Origin: Acidobacteria bacterium UBA823
GTDB taxonomy: Bacteria; Acidobacteriota; Vicinamibacteria; Vicinamibacterales; UBA823
Assembly: GCA_002296225.1 (NCBI GenBank)
Contig: DBHR01000116.1
Location: 25,981-89,980, forward strand
Reading direction: 5' to 3'
Length of the DNA stretch: 64,000 bases
Program-made: the position numbers and the translations under genes
Shown: in pieces, positions 1-47,114 of the stretch
How the letters are laid out: each line of letters begins with the position of its first letter
How positions within the stretch are numbered: the first letter of the stretch is position 1
The notes under the pieces: model-generated
Told to the model about the DNA's origin: nothing
The model's input: only the letters and a program-made list of their open reading frames with translations
Database searches by the model: none

Positions 1-928
1 GACAGCCTGGCACGTTCTGATGGAGCATCTCGTACCCCGAAGCCTCGGTGTCGAATTCGCACATCCGCGGGAAGTGTTTCCGGCCTTTGCTCAGGTGCGG
101 GGACACAACATGGCCAAGGCTGCTCTAGAAATGGCTGCCTGGGACCTCTATGCGCGCCAGTCGGGCGTGCCGTTGAGCCAGGTGCTCGGTGGCTGCCGGA
201 CGACCATTGCTTCGGGAGTTTCGGTGGGGATACAAGATTCGCTCGAACAACTCGGCGACAAGATCGCAGCCGAACTAGCGGCTGGATACCAGCGTATCAA
301 GGTGAAAATTAAGCCGGGCTGGGACATTGAGGTTGTCCAATCGGTCCGGAAGCGGTTCGGCGACATCCCGCTGATGGTCGATGCAAACGGGGCCTACACA
401 CTGGTGGATGCCGAGCACTTGGCCCAGTTAGACCAGTTCAATCTGATGATGATTGAGCAGCCGTTGGACTACGACGATGTGCACGACCATGCCAAATTGC
501 AGCAACGTCTTCGCACCCCGATCTGCCTCGATGAATCGATTCACACGCTGCACAGGGCCGCCGAAGCACTCGCTGTAACTGCGTGCCGCATCATCAACAT
601 CAAGCCTGGTCGCATTGGGGGACACGCGCAGTCGATCCACCTTCACAACATGTGTGCCGAGCGTAAGATCCCCGTATGGCATGGTGGGATGCTCGAGAGC
701 GGCATCGGCCGGACGCACAATATCCATCTCTCGACGCTGCCGAATTTCACGCTGCCAGGCGACGTGGCGGCTAGCCGACGTTATTTCGAGCCCGATCTCA
801 TCGATCCCCCTGTTGAATTACAGGCCGACGGGACCATCGCCGTGCCCGCGTTGCCAGGCTTGGGAGTGTCGGTGGCCGAGGACCGTGTCGAACGTGCGAC
901 TCAGCGCGCGGTAACGCTGGTTGCTTGA
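1..928 (+). CDS. Enolase-superfamily enzyme of the o-succinylbenzoate synthase / N-acylamino-acid racemase (MenC/MLE) group. It is 5'-truncated by the window edge.
   Basis: Catalytic signature is visible in order: KVKIKPG (KxK), MVDANGAY (Asp), IEQPL (Glu), LDES (Asp), INIKPGR (Lys). The N-terminal capping domain is missing, so the gene starts upstream of position 1. Confidence 0.8.
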   Translation, partial: TAWHVLMEHLVPRSLGVEFAHPREVFPAFAQVRGHNMAKAALEMAAWDLYARQSGVPLSQVLGGCRTTIASGVSVGIQDSLEQLGDKIAAELAAGYQRIKVKIKPGWDIEVVQSVRKRFGDIPLMVDANGAYTLVDAEHLAQLDQFNLMMIEQPLDYDDVHDHAKLQQRLRTPICLDESIHTLHRAAEALAVTACRIINIKPGRIGGHAQSIHLHNMCAERKIPVWHGGMLESGIGRTHNIHLSTLPNFTLPGDVAASRRYFEPDLIDPPVELQADGTIAVPALPGLGVSVAEDRVERATQRAVTLVA

Positions 929-930
929 GC

Positions 931-3087
931 ATGAGCCTGACCTGGGACGAAACGCGCGGGTTGCTCGCAACGCGCGCAGCTCGACAGAGACTTCGCTTGA
1001 CCGGCACAGTCGCAGCGCTGGTATTGCTGGCGGCTGGTTGCGCGACAGTGCCGCCCGACGTAGCACCGGCACTGACGGTTCGACAGAAGCTCGCTGTCAT
1101 TATTCAACTGGAACATCAGCGAGCGATCGCGCCGCTTGACGCTGCGGTCGTACCGCTACCCACTTTGATTCCCGGCAGGCCGCTTCCACCGACGCCTAGT
1201 TTGCTCGAGTTCCTGCACGATCCCGTGGCCAGAGTCCGGCGGCGATCGGCAATTGCTCTCGGGCGCGTCGGATTACCAGACGCGATAGCGCCGCTCACTG
1301 TGTCCCTCGTCGATTCTAATCCCGCCGTGCGCCAGATGGCCGCGTTTGCTTTGGGTTTGATTGGGGAGCCGAAGACCGGTGATGCGCTCGTCACCGCGCT
1401 AGGTGATCCAGATCCACTGGTGCGCGGCCGTGCAGCGGAAGCGTTGAGTCGACTCGGGGCGCGCGACTCGGCGTCAGCCGTGGGACAGATGGTTGCAGAA
1501 CTAGTTCCCATCGCTGCTCAAGTCGCGCCCGACGACATGACGTATCCCCAGTCGGCGTCTGTCGAAGCCTTCCGGCTTGGTGTTGTTGCGTTGGCCCGGC
1601 TCGGGGCGTATGAGCCGTTCGCTGCTGCGGTGCTCAACGCCGACAATCTTCCAACAGTTCGATGGTGGCCGGTTCCGTGGGCACTTCAGGAACTCGCTGA
1701 CCCGCGAGGGGCCGCGGCGTTAGCGGACTTAATTAAAGGCTCGGGCAGCTACAGGATTGCCTTCGCTGCACGAGGCTTGGGCCTTCTCGGCGAGCCCGCA
1801 GCAGTCGAATTACTGGTCCCACTCCTCAATCCTAGCCGGTACGACTCCCAGGTGATCGTGTCGGCGATTCGGTCATTGGCTGACCTGGCTAGTCAAAGCG
1901 CTCTTACGGCGTTGAACCAGTTACTACGGACCCCCAACCTCGATCCCACTGTTCTTCTTGAGGTCGTGAGAGCCCTCGGCAGAATCGGTGGCGACGAGTC
2001 GACGGACCTGTTCTTGGATTTGCTGTCACACCCGTGGCCGACGTTCAGAGTAGAGGCGCTTCGGGGGCTGGCTGGCCTCGGTGCACAGACGTTTTTCCTG
2101 GCGCTGTCGGGATTGGACGGAGACCCGCACTGGAGCGTCCGCGCGACGGTCGCGGAACTCCTTGGGTCGATGAACCCCGATCTAGCCGCTCCGCGTCTTG
2201 AGGCGATGCTAGACGATCCCGATAGGCGCGTGCTGCCGGTCGTGCTCGGTGCTCTGCGGGCGCCGGGAGGCGCCGAGGTCGCACTCCAGTATCTGGAAAG
2301 TGGTGACTTTGTGACGCGAATGGCGGCGGCTCGCCAGGTTGGGCTACTCAAACCGGCCCATGGTGCCGCAGCGCTGATGCGAGCCTACGAAAGAAGTCAA
2401 GGTGGGCAAGCGGTCGCGTTGCGACGCGCCGTTGTTGAGGCGATCGTTGGTTATGGAGGCGATGAAGCCGCAGAAGTGCTGCGAGAGGCCCTGACTGACC
2501 CGGATTGGGCCGTGCGTGCTCACGCGGCGCAATTGCTAGATGCTGATGAACCCGACGCGCGATACGCACACCGGATTCGTCCGCTACCGGGACCAGCGTT
2601 CGAGTATGCGTTGACGCTGGCCGACCCTAAGGTGTCTCCGCAGGTCTATCTTGATACAGATGCCGGGACGATTCAGATCGAGTTGTCGGTGCTCGATGCT
2701 CCACTATCGACCAGTCGCTTCGCGGAACTGGCGGCAAATGGGTATTTCCACGGCGTACCGTTTCATGAGGTTGTACCGAATGGCCTGGTACGAGGTGGAG
2801 ACCCACAGGGCAACGGTTTCGGAGGCTCCGGTAGCACGGTACTGGACGAGGTGAGCGAGCGGCCGATTCTTCGAGGTACCGTAGGGGTCACGCTGCAGGG
2901 GGACAAACCAGAAACCGGGGAGGGTCAGTTCTTCATCGCCCTCACACCCCAGCCTGACCTCGACGGGCTCTACACGGTTATTGGTCGTGTCGTGGACGGA
3001 ATGGCGGTCGTCGACGGCCTCAATCAGTGGGACGTGATTAGACGCACCCGCGTTTGGAATGGGATCTCAATGACCGGCCGAGAGTGA
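931..3087 (+). CDS. Lipoprotein with HEAT-like repeats fused to a C-terminal cyclophilin-type peptidyl-prolyl isomerase domain
   Basis: Lipobox LLAAGC follows a charged N-region. DPxxxVRxxAAxALG-type repeats recur through about 550 aa. The C-terminus (GYFHGVPFHEVV...GDPQGNGFGG...GQFFI) is cyclophilin-like. ATG at 931 is preferred over TTG at 925. Confidence 0.8.
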   Translation: MSLTWDETRGLLATRAARQRLRLTGTVAALVLLAAGCATVPPDVAPALTVRQKLAVIIQLEHQRAIAPLDAAVVPLPTLIPGRPLPPTPSLLEFLHDPVARVRRRSAIALGRVGLPDAIAPLTVSLVDSNPAVRQMAAFALGLIGEPKTGDALVTALGDPDPLVRGRAAEALSRLGARDSASAVGQMVAELVPIAAQVAPDDMTYPQSASVEAFRLGVVALARLGAYEPFAAAVLNADNLPTVRWWPVPWALQELADPRGAAALADLIKGSGSYRIAFAARGLGLLGEPAAVELLVPLLNPSRYDSQVIVSAIRSLADLASQSALTALNQLLRTPNLDPTVLLEVVRALGRIGGDESTDLFLDLLSHPWPTFRVEALRGLAGLGAQTFFLALSGLDGDPHWSVRATVAELLGSMNPDLAAPRLEAMLDDPDRRVLPVVLGALRAPGGAEVALQYLESGDFVTRMAAARQVGLLKPAHGAAALMRAYERSQGGQAVALRRAVVEAIVGYGGDEAAEVLREALTDPDWAVRAHAAQLLDADEPDARYAHRIRPLPGPAFEYALTLADPKVSPQVYLDTDAGTIQIELSVLDAPLSTSRFAELAANGYFHGVPFHEVVPNGLVRGGDPQGNGFGGSGSTVLDEVSERPILRGTVGVTLQGDKPETGEGQFFIALTPQPDLDGLYTVIGRVVDGMAVVDGLNQWDVIRRTRVWNGISMTGRE

Positions 3088-3110
3088 CTACGAGATTGCC
3101 AGGGTACGTG

Positions 3111-3139
3111 AAAAAGGGGGCGACGGTCGCCCCCTTTTT
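3111..3139. terminator. Bidirectional rho-independent terminator shared by the PPIase-fusion gene (+) and mini-gene 1 (-)
   Basis: AAAAA-GGGGGCGAC-G-GTCGCCCCC-TTTTT: a GC stem flanked by an A-run and a T-run. Confidence 0.8.
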
Positions 3140-3156
3140 CGTGACGGGCGAAGGCC

Positions 3157-3219
3157 TTAGCGCTTCTTGCCGCCCTTCTTCGCTGCCTTCTTCTTCTTCT
3201 TGACTTTTCTCTTCGCCAT
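3157..3219 (-). CDS. 20-aa polycationic mini-protein MAKRKVKKKKKAAKKGGKKR (copy 1)
   Basis: ATG start, TAA stop, and a GGGGGGA SD-like run 9 nt upstream. The terminator at 3111-3139 lies downstream. It is an in-frame paralog of the ORF at 3411-3476. Confidence 0.6.
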   Translation of the reverse strand: MAKRKVKKKKKAAKKGGKKR

Positions 3220-3355
3220 TTGCGCGTATCCCCCCCTTCATCCGGAGATTTCGACGTGTGAGAACGCCCACTGCACGATTGGAAACCGGCGTACACACGA
3301 TAGCGCCCAACGTTCTATTTTCTGACCACCGGCAACCATCGCCGCTGGCCGCACA

Positions 3356-3391
3356 CAAAAATTTGGGGGTGTCGATGTTACTGACACCCCC
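3356..3391 (-). terminator. Hairpin terminator downstream of mini-gene 2
   Basis: On the minus strand: GGGGGTGTC-(9 nt loop)-GACACCCCC followed by AAATTTTTG. Confidence 0.6.
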
Positions 3392-3410
3392 GTACTAATT
3401 GGCGACGGCC

Positions 3411-3476
3411 TTAGCGCTTCTTGCCGCCCTTTTTCTTTGCGGCCTTCTTCTTCTTCTTGGCTTTTCTCTTCGCCAT
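3411..3476 (-). CDS. 21-aa polycationic mini-protein MAKRKAKKKKKAAKKKGGKKR (copy 2)
   Basis: ATG start, TAA stop, AAGGAG 8 nt upstream, a consensus-like promoter upstream and a hairpin terminator downstream. Confidence 0.65.
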   Translation of the reverse strand: MAKRKAKKKKKAAKKKGGKKR

Positions 3477-3573
3477 TCAGTCTGCTCCTTAGAGTTTGGT
3501 TGCTCAGCTAGGTAACCGACACTGAGGTGTCACAACAGGTAGACTGAGCACCCCCACGTCATACAACATGTAG

Positions 3574-3601
3574 ATTATGGATTAGAAAAACTGAGTGTCA
3601 A
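3574..3601 (-). promoter_or_regulatory. Sigma70-like promoter for mini-gene 2
   Basis: On the minus strand: TTGACA (3601-3596), 16-nt spacer, CATAAT (3579-3574). A second TTGACA and an A/T-rich tract lie just upstream. Confidence 0.55.
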
Positions 3602-3756
3602 GCACAAAGTGCACAGAATGTCAAAAAAATCGAATTGAGTGACGACGCTCCCATGATGATGTTTCGGTCGGTTTCTTACACGACTGTAGAGCGGTGGCGA
3701 TGCCGACGCCGACTCGGTTCACTCACAGTTGCATGCTCGCGTCACGTGACGAACCA

Positions 3757-4872
3757 TTACGGAACACTCGTGCGAAATCGTTTCTTGTCGGCATGCCGAT
3801 CTAAAGCGAACTGTATGAGTTCATCCAATAGGTCGGTATACGCCAAACCGCTTGCCTCCCACAGTTTGGCATACATACTGATCGTTGTGAATCCCGGGAT
3901 CGTGTTCACTTCGCTAACGAACAACCTCTTTGTTTCGGGATTCAAGAGAAAGTCGACCCTGGCCATCCCGCAGCCGTCGATCGCCCTAAACGCAGCTTCG
4001 GCAAGCGAGCGTACCTCCTTGGCTTGCTCGGCATCGATTGGGGCTGGAATGCGTATTACCGAGCCTGCGTTGAGATACTTCGCACTGTAATCGTAGAACT
4101 CTCGCGACGGTACCACCTCGCCTGGCACCGAAGTCTTGAGTTGGTTGTTGCCGAGGACAGCGCACTCGATTTCCCGGGCGTTCGGAACGGCCGCCTCCAC
4201 GACGACCTTTCGATCGAACTCTGCGGCATAGGTGATGGCTGCATCCAAGTCGTCTACGGCCTTGACCTTTGAGATACCAACGCTCGACCCGAGATTTGCT
4301 GGCTTGACGAACACCGGAAACCCCAACTTTAAGGCGATCCTTTGACGGATCACGTCGGGCTCATTTTCCCAGGCGGTTCGCCGCACGACCAGGTAGTCGA
4401 CCTGTGGTAGCTCGTTCGCCGCGAACAGTAGTTTCATTACGGCTTTGTCCATACCGACCGCAGAAGCTAGGACCCCCGCTCCGACGTAGGGTAAGTCGGC
4501 CAATTCAAGGAGACCCTGCACCGTGCCGTCCTCACCATACGGACCGTGCAGCAACGGGAAGACCACGTCGAGTTCGAGACCTTGCACCATCGCGCTCGGT
4601 TCGTCCAGCCTCCGTGGGGTGGTCGTTTCAGCCGAGCAGTTCGATGCAGGCTTGGCCGCCTCGAGGCGAGCGTGTTGGATGACATCTGAGGCTTCAACGA
4701 TCGTCGGCGGACGAGCGGGGAGACTCCAGCGTCCGTCCTTGCCGACGAAAATGGGAACCGGGTCGTAGCGGCTCGAATTCAGATGGTGGATGACGGAGGC
4801 CGCTGATGCCAGCGAAACTTCGTGTTCGCCAGAGCACCCACCGTACAGTACGCCGATCCGCAACCGTGCCAC
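3757..4872 (-). CDS. ddl: D-alanine--D-alanine ligase
   Basis: N-terminus RIGVLYGGCSGEHEVSLASA. ATP-grasp segment FPVFVKPANLGSSVGISKV. Length is typical at 371 aa. Confidence 0.93.
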   Translation of the reverse strand: MARLRIGVLYGGCSGEHEVSLASAASVIHHLNSSRYDPVPIFVGKDGRWSLPARPPTIVEASDVIQHARLEAAKPASNCSAETTTPRRLDEPSAMVQGLELDVVFPLLHGPYGEDGTVQGLLELADLPYVGAGVLASAVGMDKAVMKLLFAANELPQVDYLVVRRTAWENEPDVIRQRIALKLGFPVFVKPANLGSSVGISKVKAVDDLDAAITYAAEFDRKVVVEAAVPNAREIECAVLGNNQLKTSVPGEVVPSREFYDYSAKYLNAGSVIRIPAPIDAEQAKEVRSLAEAAFRAIDGCGMARVDFLLNPETKRLFVSEVNTIPGFTTISMYAKLWEASGLAYTDLLDELIQFALDRHADKKRFRTSVP

Positions 4873-4942: not shown

Positions 4943-6112
4943 ATGGCGGGCGTCTTCGACTTTCAGGTTATCGCGCGTGAAGGCAATGCGCGCTGCGGCA
5001 CGCTATCGACACCACACGGCACCGTACAAACGCCGGCGTTCATGCCGGTAGGCACCCGTGGTGCGGTCAAGGCGATAATGCATCGGGATCTGATCGACTT
5101 GGGTGCGCAGATCATCTTGGCCAACACCTATCACCTGCACCTTCGACCTGGCACCGAGCTTATCGAACGGCTCGGCGGCCTGCACCGCTTCATCAGCTGG
5201 GATCGACCGATCCTAACCGATAGCGGTGGCTATCAGGTCTTCAGCCTCGCTACGCGGCGAACTGTTGAGGAGCAGGGCGTGCGTTTCAGGTCACATCTGG
5301 ACGGCGAGGAGCACCTACTCACGCCAGAGGGGGCGACCGAGATCCAGTGGTCCCTCGGGTCGGACGTCGCGATGGTCTTTGACGAGTGTGTCCCCTATCC
5401 CTGCGACGCGTCGGACGTGCGTCGTGCGATGGAACGGACGCTCCGGTGGGCGGAGCGCGCCCGGTTGCGATTCAAGGCCTTGCGTGAGACCGGAGTCGGC
5501 ACTAATCCCGGTCAGGTGCAGTTCGGAATTGTGCAAGGTGGTGTTCATCGAAACCTTCGAGCCATCAGTGAACGCCAAACGGTCGCGCTTGGCTTCGACG
5601 CTTATGCTATCGGTGGGCTCAGTGTCGGTGAGCCTGTGCCGGTCATGTACGACGTTGTGGCCGAGACGGCGCCGCGCCTTCCCGCCGAGTGTCCACGATA
5701 TCTGATGGGGGCCGGGACCCCAGTCGATCTTGTCGAGGCCGTGTTGCGCGGCATCGATTTATTCGATTGTGTACTGCCGACACGCAACGGTAGAAACGGA
5801 CAGCTATTCACGTCCGAAGGGCGTCTGAATATCAAACAAGCTAGGTTTGCGGACGACTCGAGGCCGCTCGACGAGCGATGCGAATGTTACACGTGCCAAC
5901 GCCACTCCAGGGCCTATCTGAGACATCTCTACCTTACAGACAAAATGTCCGCGGCAACCCTTAACACGTTGCATAACCTCAACTTTTACCTTGACACGAT
6001 GCGACGGATTAGGGAGTGTATTAAATTCGGCACGTTGGAAGCACTCAGACAGGAATTCCACCTGCTCGACTCTCGCCCACACCAGGCTCGCGCCAGTTCG
6101 GACGCAGAGTGA
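4943..6112 (+). CDS. tgt: Queuine tRNA-ribosyltransferase (tRNA-guanine transglycosylase)
   Basis: TPAFMPVGT, LTDSGGYQVFSL, and the zinc motif CECYTCQRHSRAYLRHL. ATG at 4943 fits the family N-terminus better than GTG at 4913. Confidence 0.93.
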   Translation: MAGVFDFQVIAREGNARCGTLSTPHGTVQTPAFMPVGTRGAVKAIMHRDLIDLGAQIILANTYHLHLRPGTELIERLGGLHRFISWDRPILTDSGGYQVFSLATRRTVEEQGVRFRSHLDGEEHLLTPEGATEIQWSLGSDVAMVFDECVPYPCDASDVRRAMERTLRWAERARLRFKALRETGVGTNPGQVQFGIVQGGVHRNLRAISERQTVALGFDAYAIGGLSVGEPVPVMYDVVAETAPRLPAECPRYLMGAGTPVDLVEAVLRGIDLFDCVLPTRNGRNGQLFTSEGRLNIKQARFADDSRPLDERCECYTCQRHSRAYLRHLYLTDKMSAATLNTLHNLNFYLDTMRRIRECIKFGTLEALRQEFHLLDSRPHQARASSDAE

Positions 6113-45170: not shown

Positions 45171-45266
45171 TGGCGGAAGCGCCTGGGAGTCGAACCCAGC
45201 CCCCCCGCAGAACGGGGAGCGACCGATTTTGAAGACCGGGAGGGCCACCGGGCCCCGTTCGCTTCC
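45171..45266 (-). tRNA. selC: tRNA-Sec (anticodon UCA), 96 nt including CCA
   Basis: The minus strand runs from GGAAGCGA to GCGCTTCC-G-CCA. Features: 6-bp D-stem with 4-nt loop (GGGGCC CGGT GGCCCT), anticodon loop CU-UCA-AA, ~7-bp long variable arm (CTCCCCG TTCTG CGGGGGG), and 5-bp T-stem (CTGGG TTCGACT CCCAG). Confidence 0.88.
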
Positions 45267-46937: not shown

Positions 46938-47013
46938 TGGGCCAGTGGCGCAGTTGGGAGCGCGCGTGAATGGCATTCACGAGGTCACGGGTTCGACCCC
47001 CGTCTGGTCCACC
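46938..47013 (+). tRNA. tRNA-Ala (anticodon GGC), 76 nt with encoded CCA
   Basis: Full cloverleaf parses: acceptor GGGCCAG/CTGGTCC with the G3:U70 alanine identity pair, anticodon loop AT-GGC-AT, T-arm ACGGG TTCGACC CCCGT. A T5 run follows. Confidence 0.92.
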
Positions 47014-47114
47014 ACTTTTTCCACGCCGTCGACGATCGACTTCAACAGGCAAGCCCTGGGTTAAGGCTTGTCGCCGCCGGGCCTTCAGTTAGCGGATACC
47101 ATTTCGCAACTGGC

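Follow-up and report, generated by a model that had tools for sequence, protein, structure and literature searches.

Putative Poly-Lysine Micro-Protein Genes in an Unannotated Spacer of Vicinamibacterales Acidobacteriota

Two Conserved Poly-Lysine Mini-Genes

The 64,000-nt stretch of Acidobacteria bacterium UBA823 analyzed here (the window; contig DBHR01000116.1, positions 25,981 to 89,980) contains two near-identical open reading frames (ORFs) for lysine-rich peptides in the spacer between ddl and a convergent HEAT-cyclophilin gene. The best overall explanation, to which a probability of about 0.6 was assigned from comparative sequence data, is one compact unit whose two ORFs are translated into near-identical polycations that would act in trans, with the ribosome or its rRNA as the most likely target. 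That the ORFs themselves are real, translated, and conserved micro-protein genes is highly probable from the alignments described below.

ORF A (3411..3476, minus strand) encodes 21 amino acids, MAKRKAKKKKKAAKKKGGKKR, and ORF B (3157..3219, minus strand) encodes 20, MAKRKVKKKKKAAKKGGKKR. The translations were read directly from the DNA, and both they and the coordinates agree exactly with an initial annotation of the locus, in which ORF A was "copy 2" and ORF B "copy 1". The ATG starts reported there were found as well, together with AAGGAG 8 nt before ORF A and a G7A run 9 nt before ORF B. The two peptides consist almost wholly of Lys, Ala, and Gly; the Lys fraction is 55-57%, and the computed Lys plus Arg content is 65-67% (about 65% in the initial annotation) over a length of 20-21 residues. 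In all six frames of the 64-kb window (59.6% GC), runs of at least four Lys were confined to ORF A and ORF B. In first-order Markov simulations of the whole window (n = 100), ATG-initiated ORFs of at least 15 codons reached a maximum of 27% Lys, and none attained 40%. As had been proposed, similarity between the copies is limited to the coding part: it begins at the ATG, ends about 10 nt beyond the stop, and amounts to 87% over 55 nt; the sequences ahead of the two ORFs show no relation to each other.

To place the locus, its nearest named relatives were retrieved via Ddl homologues; these were "Acidobacteria bacterium" and Vicinamibacterales metagenome-assembled genomes (MAGs), not Planctomycetes. 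The further lineages compared were L058, L059/L060, L061, L062, L063, L064, L065, and L069, giving nine with the window included, and the Ddl proteins of the fetched lineages were 73, 72, 67, 66, 64, 64, 62, and 59% identical to that of the window. The mini-gene element was present on the ddl strand in every spacer examined, and gene callers had left the spacer empty in every public contig fetched around ddl. Two ORFs were found in seven lineages including the window; example pairs are MAKKRKAAKKKKAAKKKGGKKR with MAKKRKAAKKKRKAAKKGGKKR, MAKKKAKKKAAKKKGGKKR with MAKKKKAAKKKAAKKGGKKR, MAKKAARGGKKKGGKKR with MAKKAAKGGKKKGGKKR, and MAKKAKKAAKKAAKKR with MAKKAKKAAKKTAKKR. The ORF A orthologues of these seven two-copy lineages are 16-22 aa long and have both an ATG and a stop. 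In the soil-derived, high-GC L064 and L065, the second ORF stands alone, MAKKAKGGKKKAGKKR, between the same promoter and the same terminator. ORF B is intact in nine of nine lineages (16-22 aa), the single-ORF ones among them. The comparison therefore marks ORF B as the universal copy and ORF A as an old extra one.

Mean pairwise DNA identity was calculated by segment for six lineages. It amounted to 0.75 for the first block (promoter, leader, ORF A, and the hairpin that follows it, hairpin A) and 0.80 for the second (ribosome-binding site of ORF B, ORF B, and its terminator), against 0.69 for ddl, 0.66 for the HEAT-cyclophilin gene, 0.52 for the spacer between the copies, and 0.31 for the DNA upstream of the promoter. 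By this measure, the mini-gene unit is more conserved than the neighbouring essential genes. When paralogues were compared with orthologues, the copies of the window and of L063 paired with their own paralogue, and elsewhere orthologues were closest. Since orthologues are usually closer than paralogues, the duplication appears to be old, with signs of gene conversion in the window and in L063; general concerted evolution of the two copies was considered and set aside, being partial and limited to these two lineages. The strain variants L001-L004 are essentially identical to the window, with two single-nucleotide polymorphisms that both lie outside the ORFs, and are thus uninformative on selection.

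The flanking genes of the window are ddl (3757..4872, minus strand) and the convergent HEAT-repeat plus cyclophilin fusion gene (925..3087, plus strand); genes for MenC, Tgt, YajC, and SecDF also lie near. The gene order is kept among the relatives, with SecF-SecD-YajC-Tgt on one strand followed by ddl, the uncalled spacer, and the convergent HEAT-cyclophilin gene. Additional genes follow ddl in L064, L065, and L069, where the spacer still adjoins the convergent gene. The HEAT-cyclophilin protein, about 700-730 aa long, combines multiple HEAT/PBS-lyase-type repeats with a C-terminal cyclophilin peptidyl-prolyl isomerase and is kept across the clade; the start of its gene overlaps by 4 nt with the end of the upstream MenC-like gene (20-928). 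The window also carries a selenocysteine tRNA (45171-45266, minus strand; Rfam, 62 bits; ARAGORN anticodon TCA), from which the organism is expected to use selenoproteins, with a tRNA-Ala(GGC) near it (46939-47014, plus strand).

Comparative Evidence for a Coding Poly-Lysine Frame

In all 16 intact ORFs of the nine lineages, the ATG and the Shine-Dalgarno (SD) sequence are kept and a stop follows 16-22 codons on. The stops TAA, TAG, and TGA interchange at one aligned position. Among gap-free codons, the variable columns numbered 0, 1, and 5 at codon positions 1, 2, and 3 (binomial p = 0.018), a test that is weak alone, one antisense frame sharing the third positions. All length differences between the ORFs are multiples of three, a point of little weight, since slippage of an AAG repeat yields such indels in any case. 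The C-terminal KKR is invariant, and the longer ending KK(K)GGKKR is invariant in seven lineages, L069 being without the GG. Taken together, these alignments strongly support selection acting on the peptide and not on a repeat or an RNA. Such peptide-level selection had been suggested in the initial annotation, where conservation of frame, ATG, and SD in relatives was proposed as a check; all three are kept in the eight further lineages, in 16 of 17 ORFs.

The pooled peptides contain 158 Lys, 68 Ala, 34 Gly, and 23 Arg among 301 residues (Lys 52%, Ala 23%, Gly 11%), and each ORF has 9-13 Lys codons among its 16-22. For comparison, a flanking-gene set of 12,670 codons was compiled from 25 ddl, tgt, and HEAT-cyclophilin genes of the window and L058-L069. 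In this set, Lys accounts for 1.4% and Arg for 8.5% of codons, so that K/(K+R) is 0.14, whereas it is 0.87 in the peptides. AAG outnumbers AAA by 143:15 in the mini-gene ORFs, compared with 136:40 in the flanking set (Fisher p = 0.001), and the ORFs contain no adjacent AAA-AAA codons. These counts indicate that lysine itself is specifically selected. In bacteria, ribosomes slide on consecutive AAA codons and less protein is made, which is not so for AAG runs (PMC9207662). The AAG preference and the lack of AAA-AAA consequently argue for efficient peptide production and against programmed stalling. The flanking-gene set is unusually lysine-poor, and the poly-Lys genes stand out all the more.

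Organization of the Transcription Unit

The elements described in this section would form one minus-strand transcription unit (about 3630..3108), composed of a strong promoter, a leader of about 90 nt, ORF A, leaky hairpin A, a spacer, ORF B, and a bidirectional terminator. High expression of the unit would be expected. The sigma-70-type promoter (3574..3601, minus strand) consists of a -35 box TTGACA (3601..3596), a 16-nt spacer, and a -10 box CATAAT (3579..3574). It matches the consensus at 11 of 12 positions and is the sole promoter-like site within 2900-3900; neither hexamer varies among the nine lineages. The TTGACA-16nt-CATAAT promoter that the initial annotation had put ahead of ORF A was thus located, at 3601..3574. 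The same annotation had credited each copy with its own expression signals. An SD and a hairpin were indeed found for each, but there is a single conserved promoter, so the copies are probably not independently expressed. Transcription would start near 3567.

Upstream of the promoter lies a promoter-proximal block (3602..3630, minus strand) with an A/T tract, a first TTGACA box (3624..3619), and TGTGCACTTTGTGC. It is near-invariant in the six lineages whose Ddl is 64-73% identical to that of the window and partly kept in L064, L065, and L069. Just upstream of the -35 box, the block TTGACATTTTGTGCACTTTGTGC hardly varies across lineages; it includes a GTGCAC palindrome and a second TTGACA. The promoter-proximal block may be an UP element or an operator; since its conservation exceeds what an UP element needs, an operator is possible. 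The motif CTTTGTGCTTGACAC does not recur above chance elsewhere in the window.

The 5' leader of about 90 nt (3477..3567, minus strand) has an outer stem GCUCAGC/GCUGAGC and contains the SD AAGGAG of ORF A (3490..3485). Its sequence is highly conserved. RNAalifold predicts the leader stem with invariant pairs and compensatory change in just 2 of 22; the fold is plausible, the variation being too small for covariation to prove it. A 21-codon ORF within the leader (3569..3504) was rejected as a gene, as it is not conserved and relatives show ATG-TAG there. In every lineage, ORF A is preceded at 5-8 nt by GGGAGGA, AAGGAG, or GGAGGA, and ORF B at about 9-12 nt by GAAGGGGGGGA or GGGAGGG. The lead-in of ORF B (3220..3256, minus strand), CGUCGAAAUCUCCGGAUGAAGGGGGGGAUACGCGCAA, includes a G-rich SD at about 3238..3229, with the G7A run at 3236..3229. 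It is near-invariant in all nine lineages, and the GGGAGGG variants of L059 and L063 contain the canonical GGAGG.

Hairpin A (3357..3391, minus strand) is formed by the arms GGGGGUGUC and GACACCCCC (9 bp), followed by AAA and then UUUUU. Its predicted free energy is -18.7 kcal/mol, and 0 of 200 shuffles were as stable. The stem and much of the loop are kept in the marine lineages, a stem variant in L063 is compensated, and L069 has another hairpin without a U-run. As the U-run of the window begins 3 nt beyond the stem, the GC hairpin and T-run described earlier behind each copy were recovered with this offset for hairpin A; both hairpins fold stably. Hairpin A is probably a leaky intrinsic terminator. 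The inter-copy spacer (3257..3356, minus strand) is poorly conserved, with 52% mean identity, and no conserved promoter is visible inside it in the lineage alignment. ORF B is probably reached by read-through of hairpin A: no conserved promoter precedes it, the single-ORF lineages use the upstream promoter, and the hairpin A U-run is offset, or absent in L069.

Terminator B (3110..3140, both strands) is a bidirectional intrinsic terminator common to the mini-gene unit (minus strand) and the HEAT-cyclophilin gene (plus strand). Its sequence, GAAAAAGGGGGCGAC-C-GUCGCCCCCUUUUUC, is a perfect 15-nt inverted repeat with a 1-nt gap, with a predicted free energy of -25.1 kcal/mol (z = -6.8; 0 of 200 shuffles as stable). 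Between the closely related contigs L059 and L060, a compensatory double substitution turns the A/U stem extension GAAAAAGG...CCUUUUUC into GAACAAGG...CCUUGUUC, and the hairpin that L069 has at this position differs in sequence. Because of this compensatory change and the unrelated-sequence hairpin in the same place, terminator B is judged from the alignment to be a true structural element. A rule-based terminator scan called no terminators in the region, which is owed to the scan's own rules (palindrome gap of 1 nt; U-run offset). The distance from stop to stem is constant, 17-23 nt in 14 of 14 hairpins and 18-21 nt for hairpin A, with free energies from -13 to -25 kcal/mol.

Database Searches and Poly-Lysine Genes in Other Bacteria

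The peptide family had not been recognised in the initial annotation, and no known family matched it here. Scans of the peptides against Pfam and NCBIfam gave no match at E<=1 or E<=10, with low power for low-complexity queries of 20 residues. Rfam 15 returned sub-gathering noise and nothing at the gathering threshold in 2800-4000, and it gave nothing beyond noise for the lysA-linked loci described below. None of ten peptide variants had an exact-sequence record among about 15 billion predicted proteins, an absence explained by ORFs just 16-22 codons long. The tiny lineage-specific polycationic protein is already known as a kind. This family, with its near-pure Lys/Ala make-up in lysine-poor genomes and its tandem layout behind one hyper-conserved promoter and leader, is not described in the literature searched.

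A degenerate DNA pattern for MAK[RS]KxKKKKK was scanned over genome and metagenome collections. It proved too narrow and missed all acidobacterial orthologues, which start with MAKKK, MAKKR, or MAKKA. Its matches were mostly due to chance (basic N-termini of large proteins, A-rich repeats, and phage-like contexts), and its sole real yield was a Phycisphaerae-type family. Among the other matches, short ORFs (12-16 aa), MAKRKAKKKKKR for example, were seen at L030:66-104, L035:3300-3338, L040:1117-1158, L042:7933-7983, and L047:2962-3000, and several of them have a strong SD. These poly-Lys ORFs lie on AT-rich metagenome contigs in unrelated, partly phage-like context and may be further micro-genes or chance matches. 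A 58-aa protein with an N-terminal MAKSKGKKKKK extension is encoded on high-GC metagenome contigs (L020:406-579, minus strand; L050:140-316, plus strand); judged by eye, it resembles ribosomal protein bL33.

The Phycisphaerae-type poly-Lys mini-genes were found in Phycisphaerae/Planctomycetota-type MAGs (L007:6306-6413, L012:1798-1884, L066:1407-1466, L067:1488-1598, and L068:1508-1621; also L054). L007 and L012, labelled Pirellulales and Phycisphaerae, have free-standing poly-Lys ORFs of 35 and 28 aa with strong SDs, situated upstream of lysA (TIGR01048, 462-471 bits) and separated from it by a hairpin-rich RNA of about 165-190 nt and a terminator. Three more LysA orthologues (81-85% identity) all show the arrangement of divergent nadD, poly-Lys gene, and lysA, with ORFs of 19, 36, and 37 aa, two of which were called by gene finders. 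The lysA-linked mini-genes always lie between a divergent nadD and lysA and have their own TTGACA promoter, an AAGGAGGTGAT SD, a conserved hairpin-rich 3' untranslated region (3'UTR), and a terminator. A separate conserved promoter for lysA (TTGCAAT-N16-TATACT) is present in four of five loci, so these poly-Lys genes also look like independent small genes. From these loci, the lysA adjacency reads as one clade-level event. The Phycisphaerae-type and acidobacterial families may be homologous or convergent; convergence is possible, low-complexity sequence being unable to decide.

Proposed Role and Alternative Explanations

The product of the unit would be a small soluble polycation that acts in trans and binds a cellular polyanion electrostatically, the contacts possibly inducing a helix. 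By analogy with eL41, bS22, bL37, and Thx, its most likely target would be rRNA or the ribosome, with other RNA, the nucleoid, and polyphosphate as close alternatives. The tandem copy would raise the dosage, and the conserved promoter-proximal block and leader could provide regulation, possibly autogenous. Taken by itself, the choice of the ribosome as target is tentative and drawn from this analogy. Tiny proteins with more than 60% Lys and Arg sit in rRNA pockets and are often missed by annotation; bS22 of Borrelia was found by translated search, and bS22 is predicted in more phyla (10.1101/2023.04.16.537070). Another recent lineage-specific ribosomal protein is bL38 (PMC11851116). In its most far-reaching form, which is speculative and which we regard as unlikely, the analogy would make the peptide a ribosome- or RNA-bound micro-protein of Acidobacteriota with 16-22 residues, the shortest bacterial ribosomal protein known, lodged in an rRNA pocket of the eL41/bS22 type and autoregulated by its leader, and the Phycisphaerae genes, homologous or convergent, would make genome-encoded poly-lysine peptides a recurrent, overlooked class.

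Several observations weigh against the proposed role. ORF A is absent from L064 and L065, and in contig L057 it is disrupted by two 1-nt insertions that leave ORF B intact; the insertions and the single-ORF lineages imply that ORF A, and so one copy, is dispensable. The break in L057 is due either to an assembly error or to loss of the extra copy at the strain level. (L057, at 5153-5810, and L058, at 5153-5808, encode an identical Ddl protein.) Part of the ORF is less conserved than the leader, which could point to a function of the RNA itself. In the N-terminal half of the peptides, Lys, Ala, Arg, and Gly are shuffled and indels of 3n nt occur, so that composition is kept and position is not; indels of this size are also expected from slippage of the AAG trinucleotide repeat without selection. 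A sequence search of PDB chains gave nothing at E<=10, with low power for 20 low-complexity residues. The near-exclusive use of Lys and the lack of any hydrophobic residue are unlike eL41, bS22, and Thx. A variable N-terminal half combined with near-exclusive Lys is a poor fit to a buried, site-specific ribosomal protein. With this compositional conservation, Lys as the one basic residue of choice, and no hydrophobic anchor, a binder of DNA or polyphosphate resembling a histone H1 tail fits equally well. Finally, bS22 is near-invariant within Borrelia, whereas the N-terminal half of the window family varies in length and order (10.1101/2023.04.16.537070).

The alternative that survives best keeps the same genes and changes the target. 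The peptide would be a Lys/Ala polycation resembling a histone H1 tail that coats or condenses DNA or binds polyphosphate (polyP) granules, and not a stoichiometric ribosome component; we consider this unlikely. The composition (K 52%, A 23%, G 11%) and the KKAAKK/AKKA-type periodicity, as in MAKKAKKAAKKAAKKR, resemble H1-like tails, and conservation that is compositional instead of positional, together with variable length, would be expected of a non-specific polyanion binder. The choice of Lys over Arg fits dynamic, reversible binding. The H1-like protein AlgP associates with polyP granules (PMC9239181), and lysine-rich stretches bind polyP strongly (PMC12077175). Against this stand the KKR at the C-terminus, which is invariant, and the locally invariant KK(K)GGKKR, both hints of some site specificity, the lack of nucleoid or polyP genes in the genomic context, and the size of the known bacterial H1-like proteins, all of more than 100 aa. 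We know of no H1-like example of 16-22 aa.

It is improbable that the functional product is instead a regulatory or dual-function RNA, in which leader and hairpins form a trans-acting or structural RNA, the poly-Lys ORFs sense Lys-tRNA supply or ribosome activity and so tune termination or stability of the RNA, and the peptide is secondary. Conservation of the promoter-proximal block and leader equals or exceeds that of the ORFs, the predicted fold of the transcript is more stable than that of shuffled sequences (z = -3.3), and the constant stop-to-stem spacing (17-23 nt, 14/14), with a one-amino-acid codon run before a hairpin and U-run, has the anatomy of a sensor. An analogous poly-Lys gene lies beside lysA in another phylum, and attenuator RNAs and leader peptides are able to act in trans, as rnTrpL and peTrpL do (PMC6614838, PMC7298713). 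However, no Rfam family matches, the covariation of the leader is weak (2/22 pairs), and when either terminator is blocked in silico, 8-18 kcal/mol are lost and no alternative helix of similar stability appears. The AAG preference and AAA-AAA avoidance fit smooth translation and not stalling, and a sensor has no need of a conserved peptide C-terminus, start, and stop, or of a second copy. A lysine-supply sensor with an RNA or peptide output in trans is retained as the second reading of the unit.

A cis-acting lysine attenuator, in which the poly-Lys ORFs would be leader peptides governing read-through into a downstream lysine gene, has very little chance of being correct. The single-amino-acid-dominated ORF with a hairpin and U-run 17-23 nt on speaks for it, as do the Phycisphaerae-type loci with a poly-Lys ORF upstream of lysA (TIGR01048, 462-471 bits), the adjacency that had suggested it. 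In 9 of 9 lineages, however, the HEAT-cyclophilin gene comes next in convergent orientation and shares the last hairpin as a bidirectional terminator; with no co-oriented downstream gene in any lineage, a cis-acting attenuator is excluded for the acidobacterial family, and it was rejected for the window on this anatomy. No lysA was found in the window. With explicitly located arms, blocking the terminator 3' arm costs 7.7-18.5 kcal/mol, and no conserved or comparable alternative helix is available. Even in the lysA-linked lineage, the conserved TTGCAAT-N16-TATACT promoter lies between the mini-gene terminator and lysA in 4/5 loci. No lysine leader peptide was found in the literature; an attenuator responding to lysine would be new.

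The least credible alternative holds that the real gene is on the plus strand, where the reverse complement of (AAG)n specifies Phe/Leu-rich hydrophobic, type I toxin-like peptides (RFLPPFFFAAFFFF...) and the poly-Lys frame is a mere mirror; an open frame with a hydrophobic product (RFLPPFFF...) does stand opposite every copy and shares the poly-Lys third positions, but its sole start (TTG) is lost in L058, L061, and L062 via GGC>GGA, a change synonymous in the poly-Lys frame only, its length ranges from 12 to 68 aa with a non-conserved end, neither an SD nor a promoter serves it on the plus strand, and the promoter, SDs, ATGs, alternating stops, and hairpin A U-run are all on the minus strand.

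The putative micro-protein is of interest in several respects. Few bacterial phyla are as abundant and as little studied as Acidobacteriota, for which the literature searched yielded no ribosome structure and no small-proteome study. If ribosomal, the peptide would be a new entry in the parts list of the bacterial ribosome and might offer a lineage-specific handle on translation; as a binder of DNA or polyphosphate, it would represent a protamine-like solution in bacteria. Why genomes so poor in lysine should favour it so strongly here is, either way, a well-defined biochemical question. A synteny-anchored look at "empty" spacers can recover genes beyond the reach of pattern and homology searches.

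Comparison with Known Systems

Like the window ORFs, the attenuator leader peptides (trpL, hisL, pheL, thrL, and leuL) are encoded by tiny ORFs dominated by one amino acid, with their own promoter and a GC hairpin plus U-run close behind. Unlike them, the window unit has no co-oriented downstream gene and no antiterminator, and it shows a conserved peptide C-terminus and length class and a duplicated ORF. AlgP and chlamydial Hc1 share with the window peptides the low-complexity Lys/Ala composition and AKKA/KKAA spacing, and they bind the polyanions DNA and polyP (PMC9239181). They exceed 100 aa and are built of long repeat arrays, whereas the window family consists of complete products of 16-22 aa.

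The Phycisphaerae-type genes resemble the window family in being stand-alone and un- or barely annotated, with a MAK(K/R)K start, 60-75% Lys, a TTGACA promoter, a strong SD, and a terminator. They differ in length (19-37 aa), in having T, V, or A spacers instead of G/A, and in lacking the GGKKR end; moreover, they have a conserved structured 3'UTR where the window family has a 5' leader, and they always lie beside lysA.

Among ribosomal proteins, bL37 (Actinobacteria) and bTHX (Thermus and chloroplasts) are, like the window peptides, lineage-specific basic peptides (about 24-26 aa) encoded by isolated genes, and the MAKRGRKK start of bL37 offers a lead. No homology to them is detectable; they mix Arg, Lys, His, and Gly at a fixed length, whereas the window family is built of Lys and Ala at variable length. 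bS22 and eL41 are about 25-33 aa long, and the peptides of the window family are shorter (16-22 aa). NCBIfam, Pfam, and PDB gave no match of the window peptides to bS22/eL41. The proteins of the bS22/eL41/mS38 group (mycobacteria, Bacteroidota, and Borrelia; eukaryotic cytosol; mitochondria) are nevertheless like the window peptides in being very small, more than 60% basic, and encoded by stand-alone genes overlooked by annotation. Owing to the conserved rRNA pocket, bS22/eL41 proteins are expected in more phyla (10.1101/2023.04.16.537070), and the strong expression signals of the window unit would fit an abundant product of this kind.

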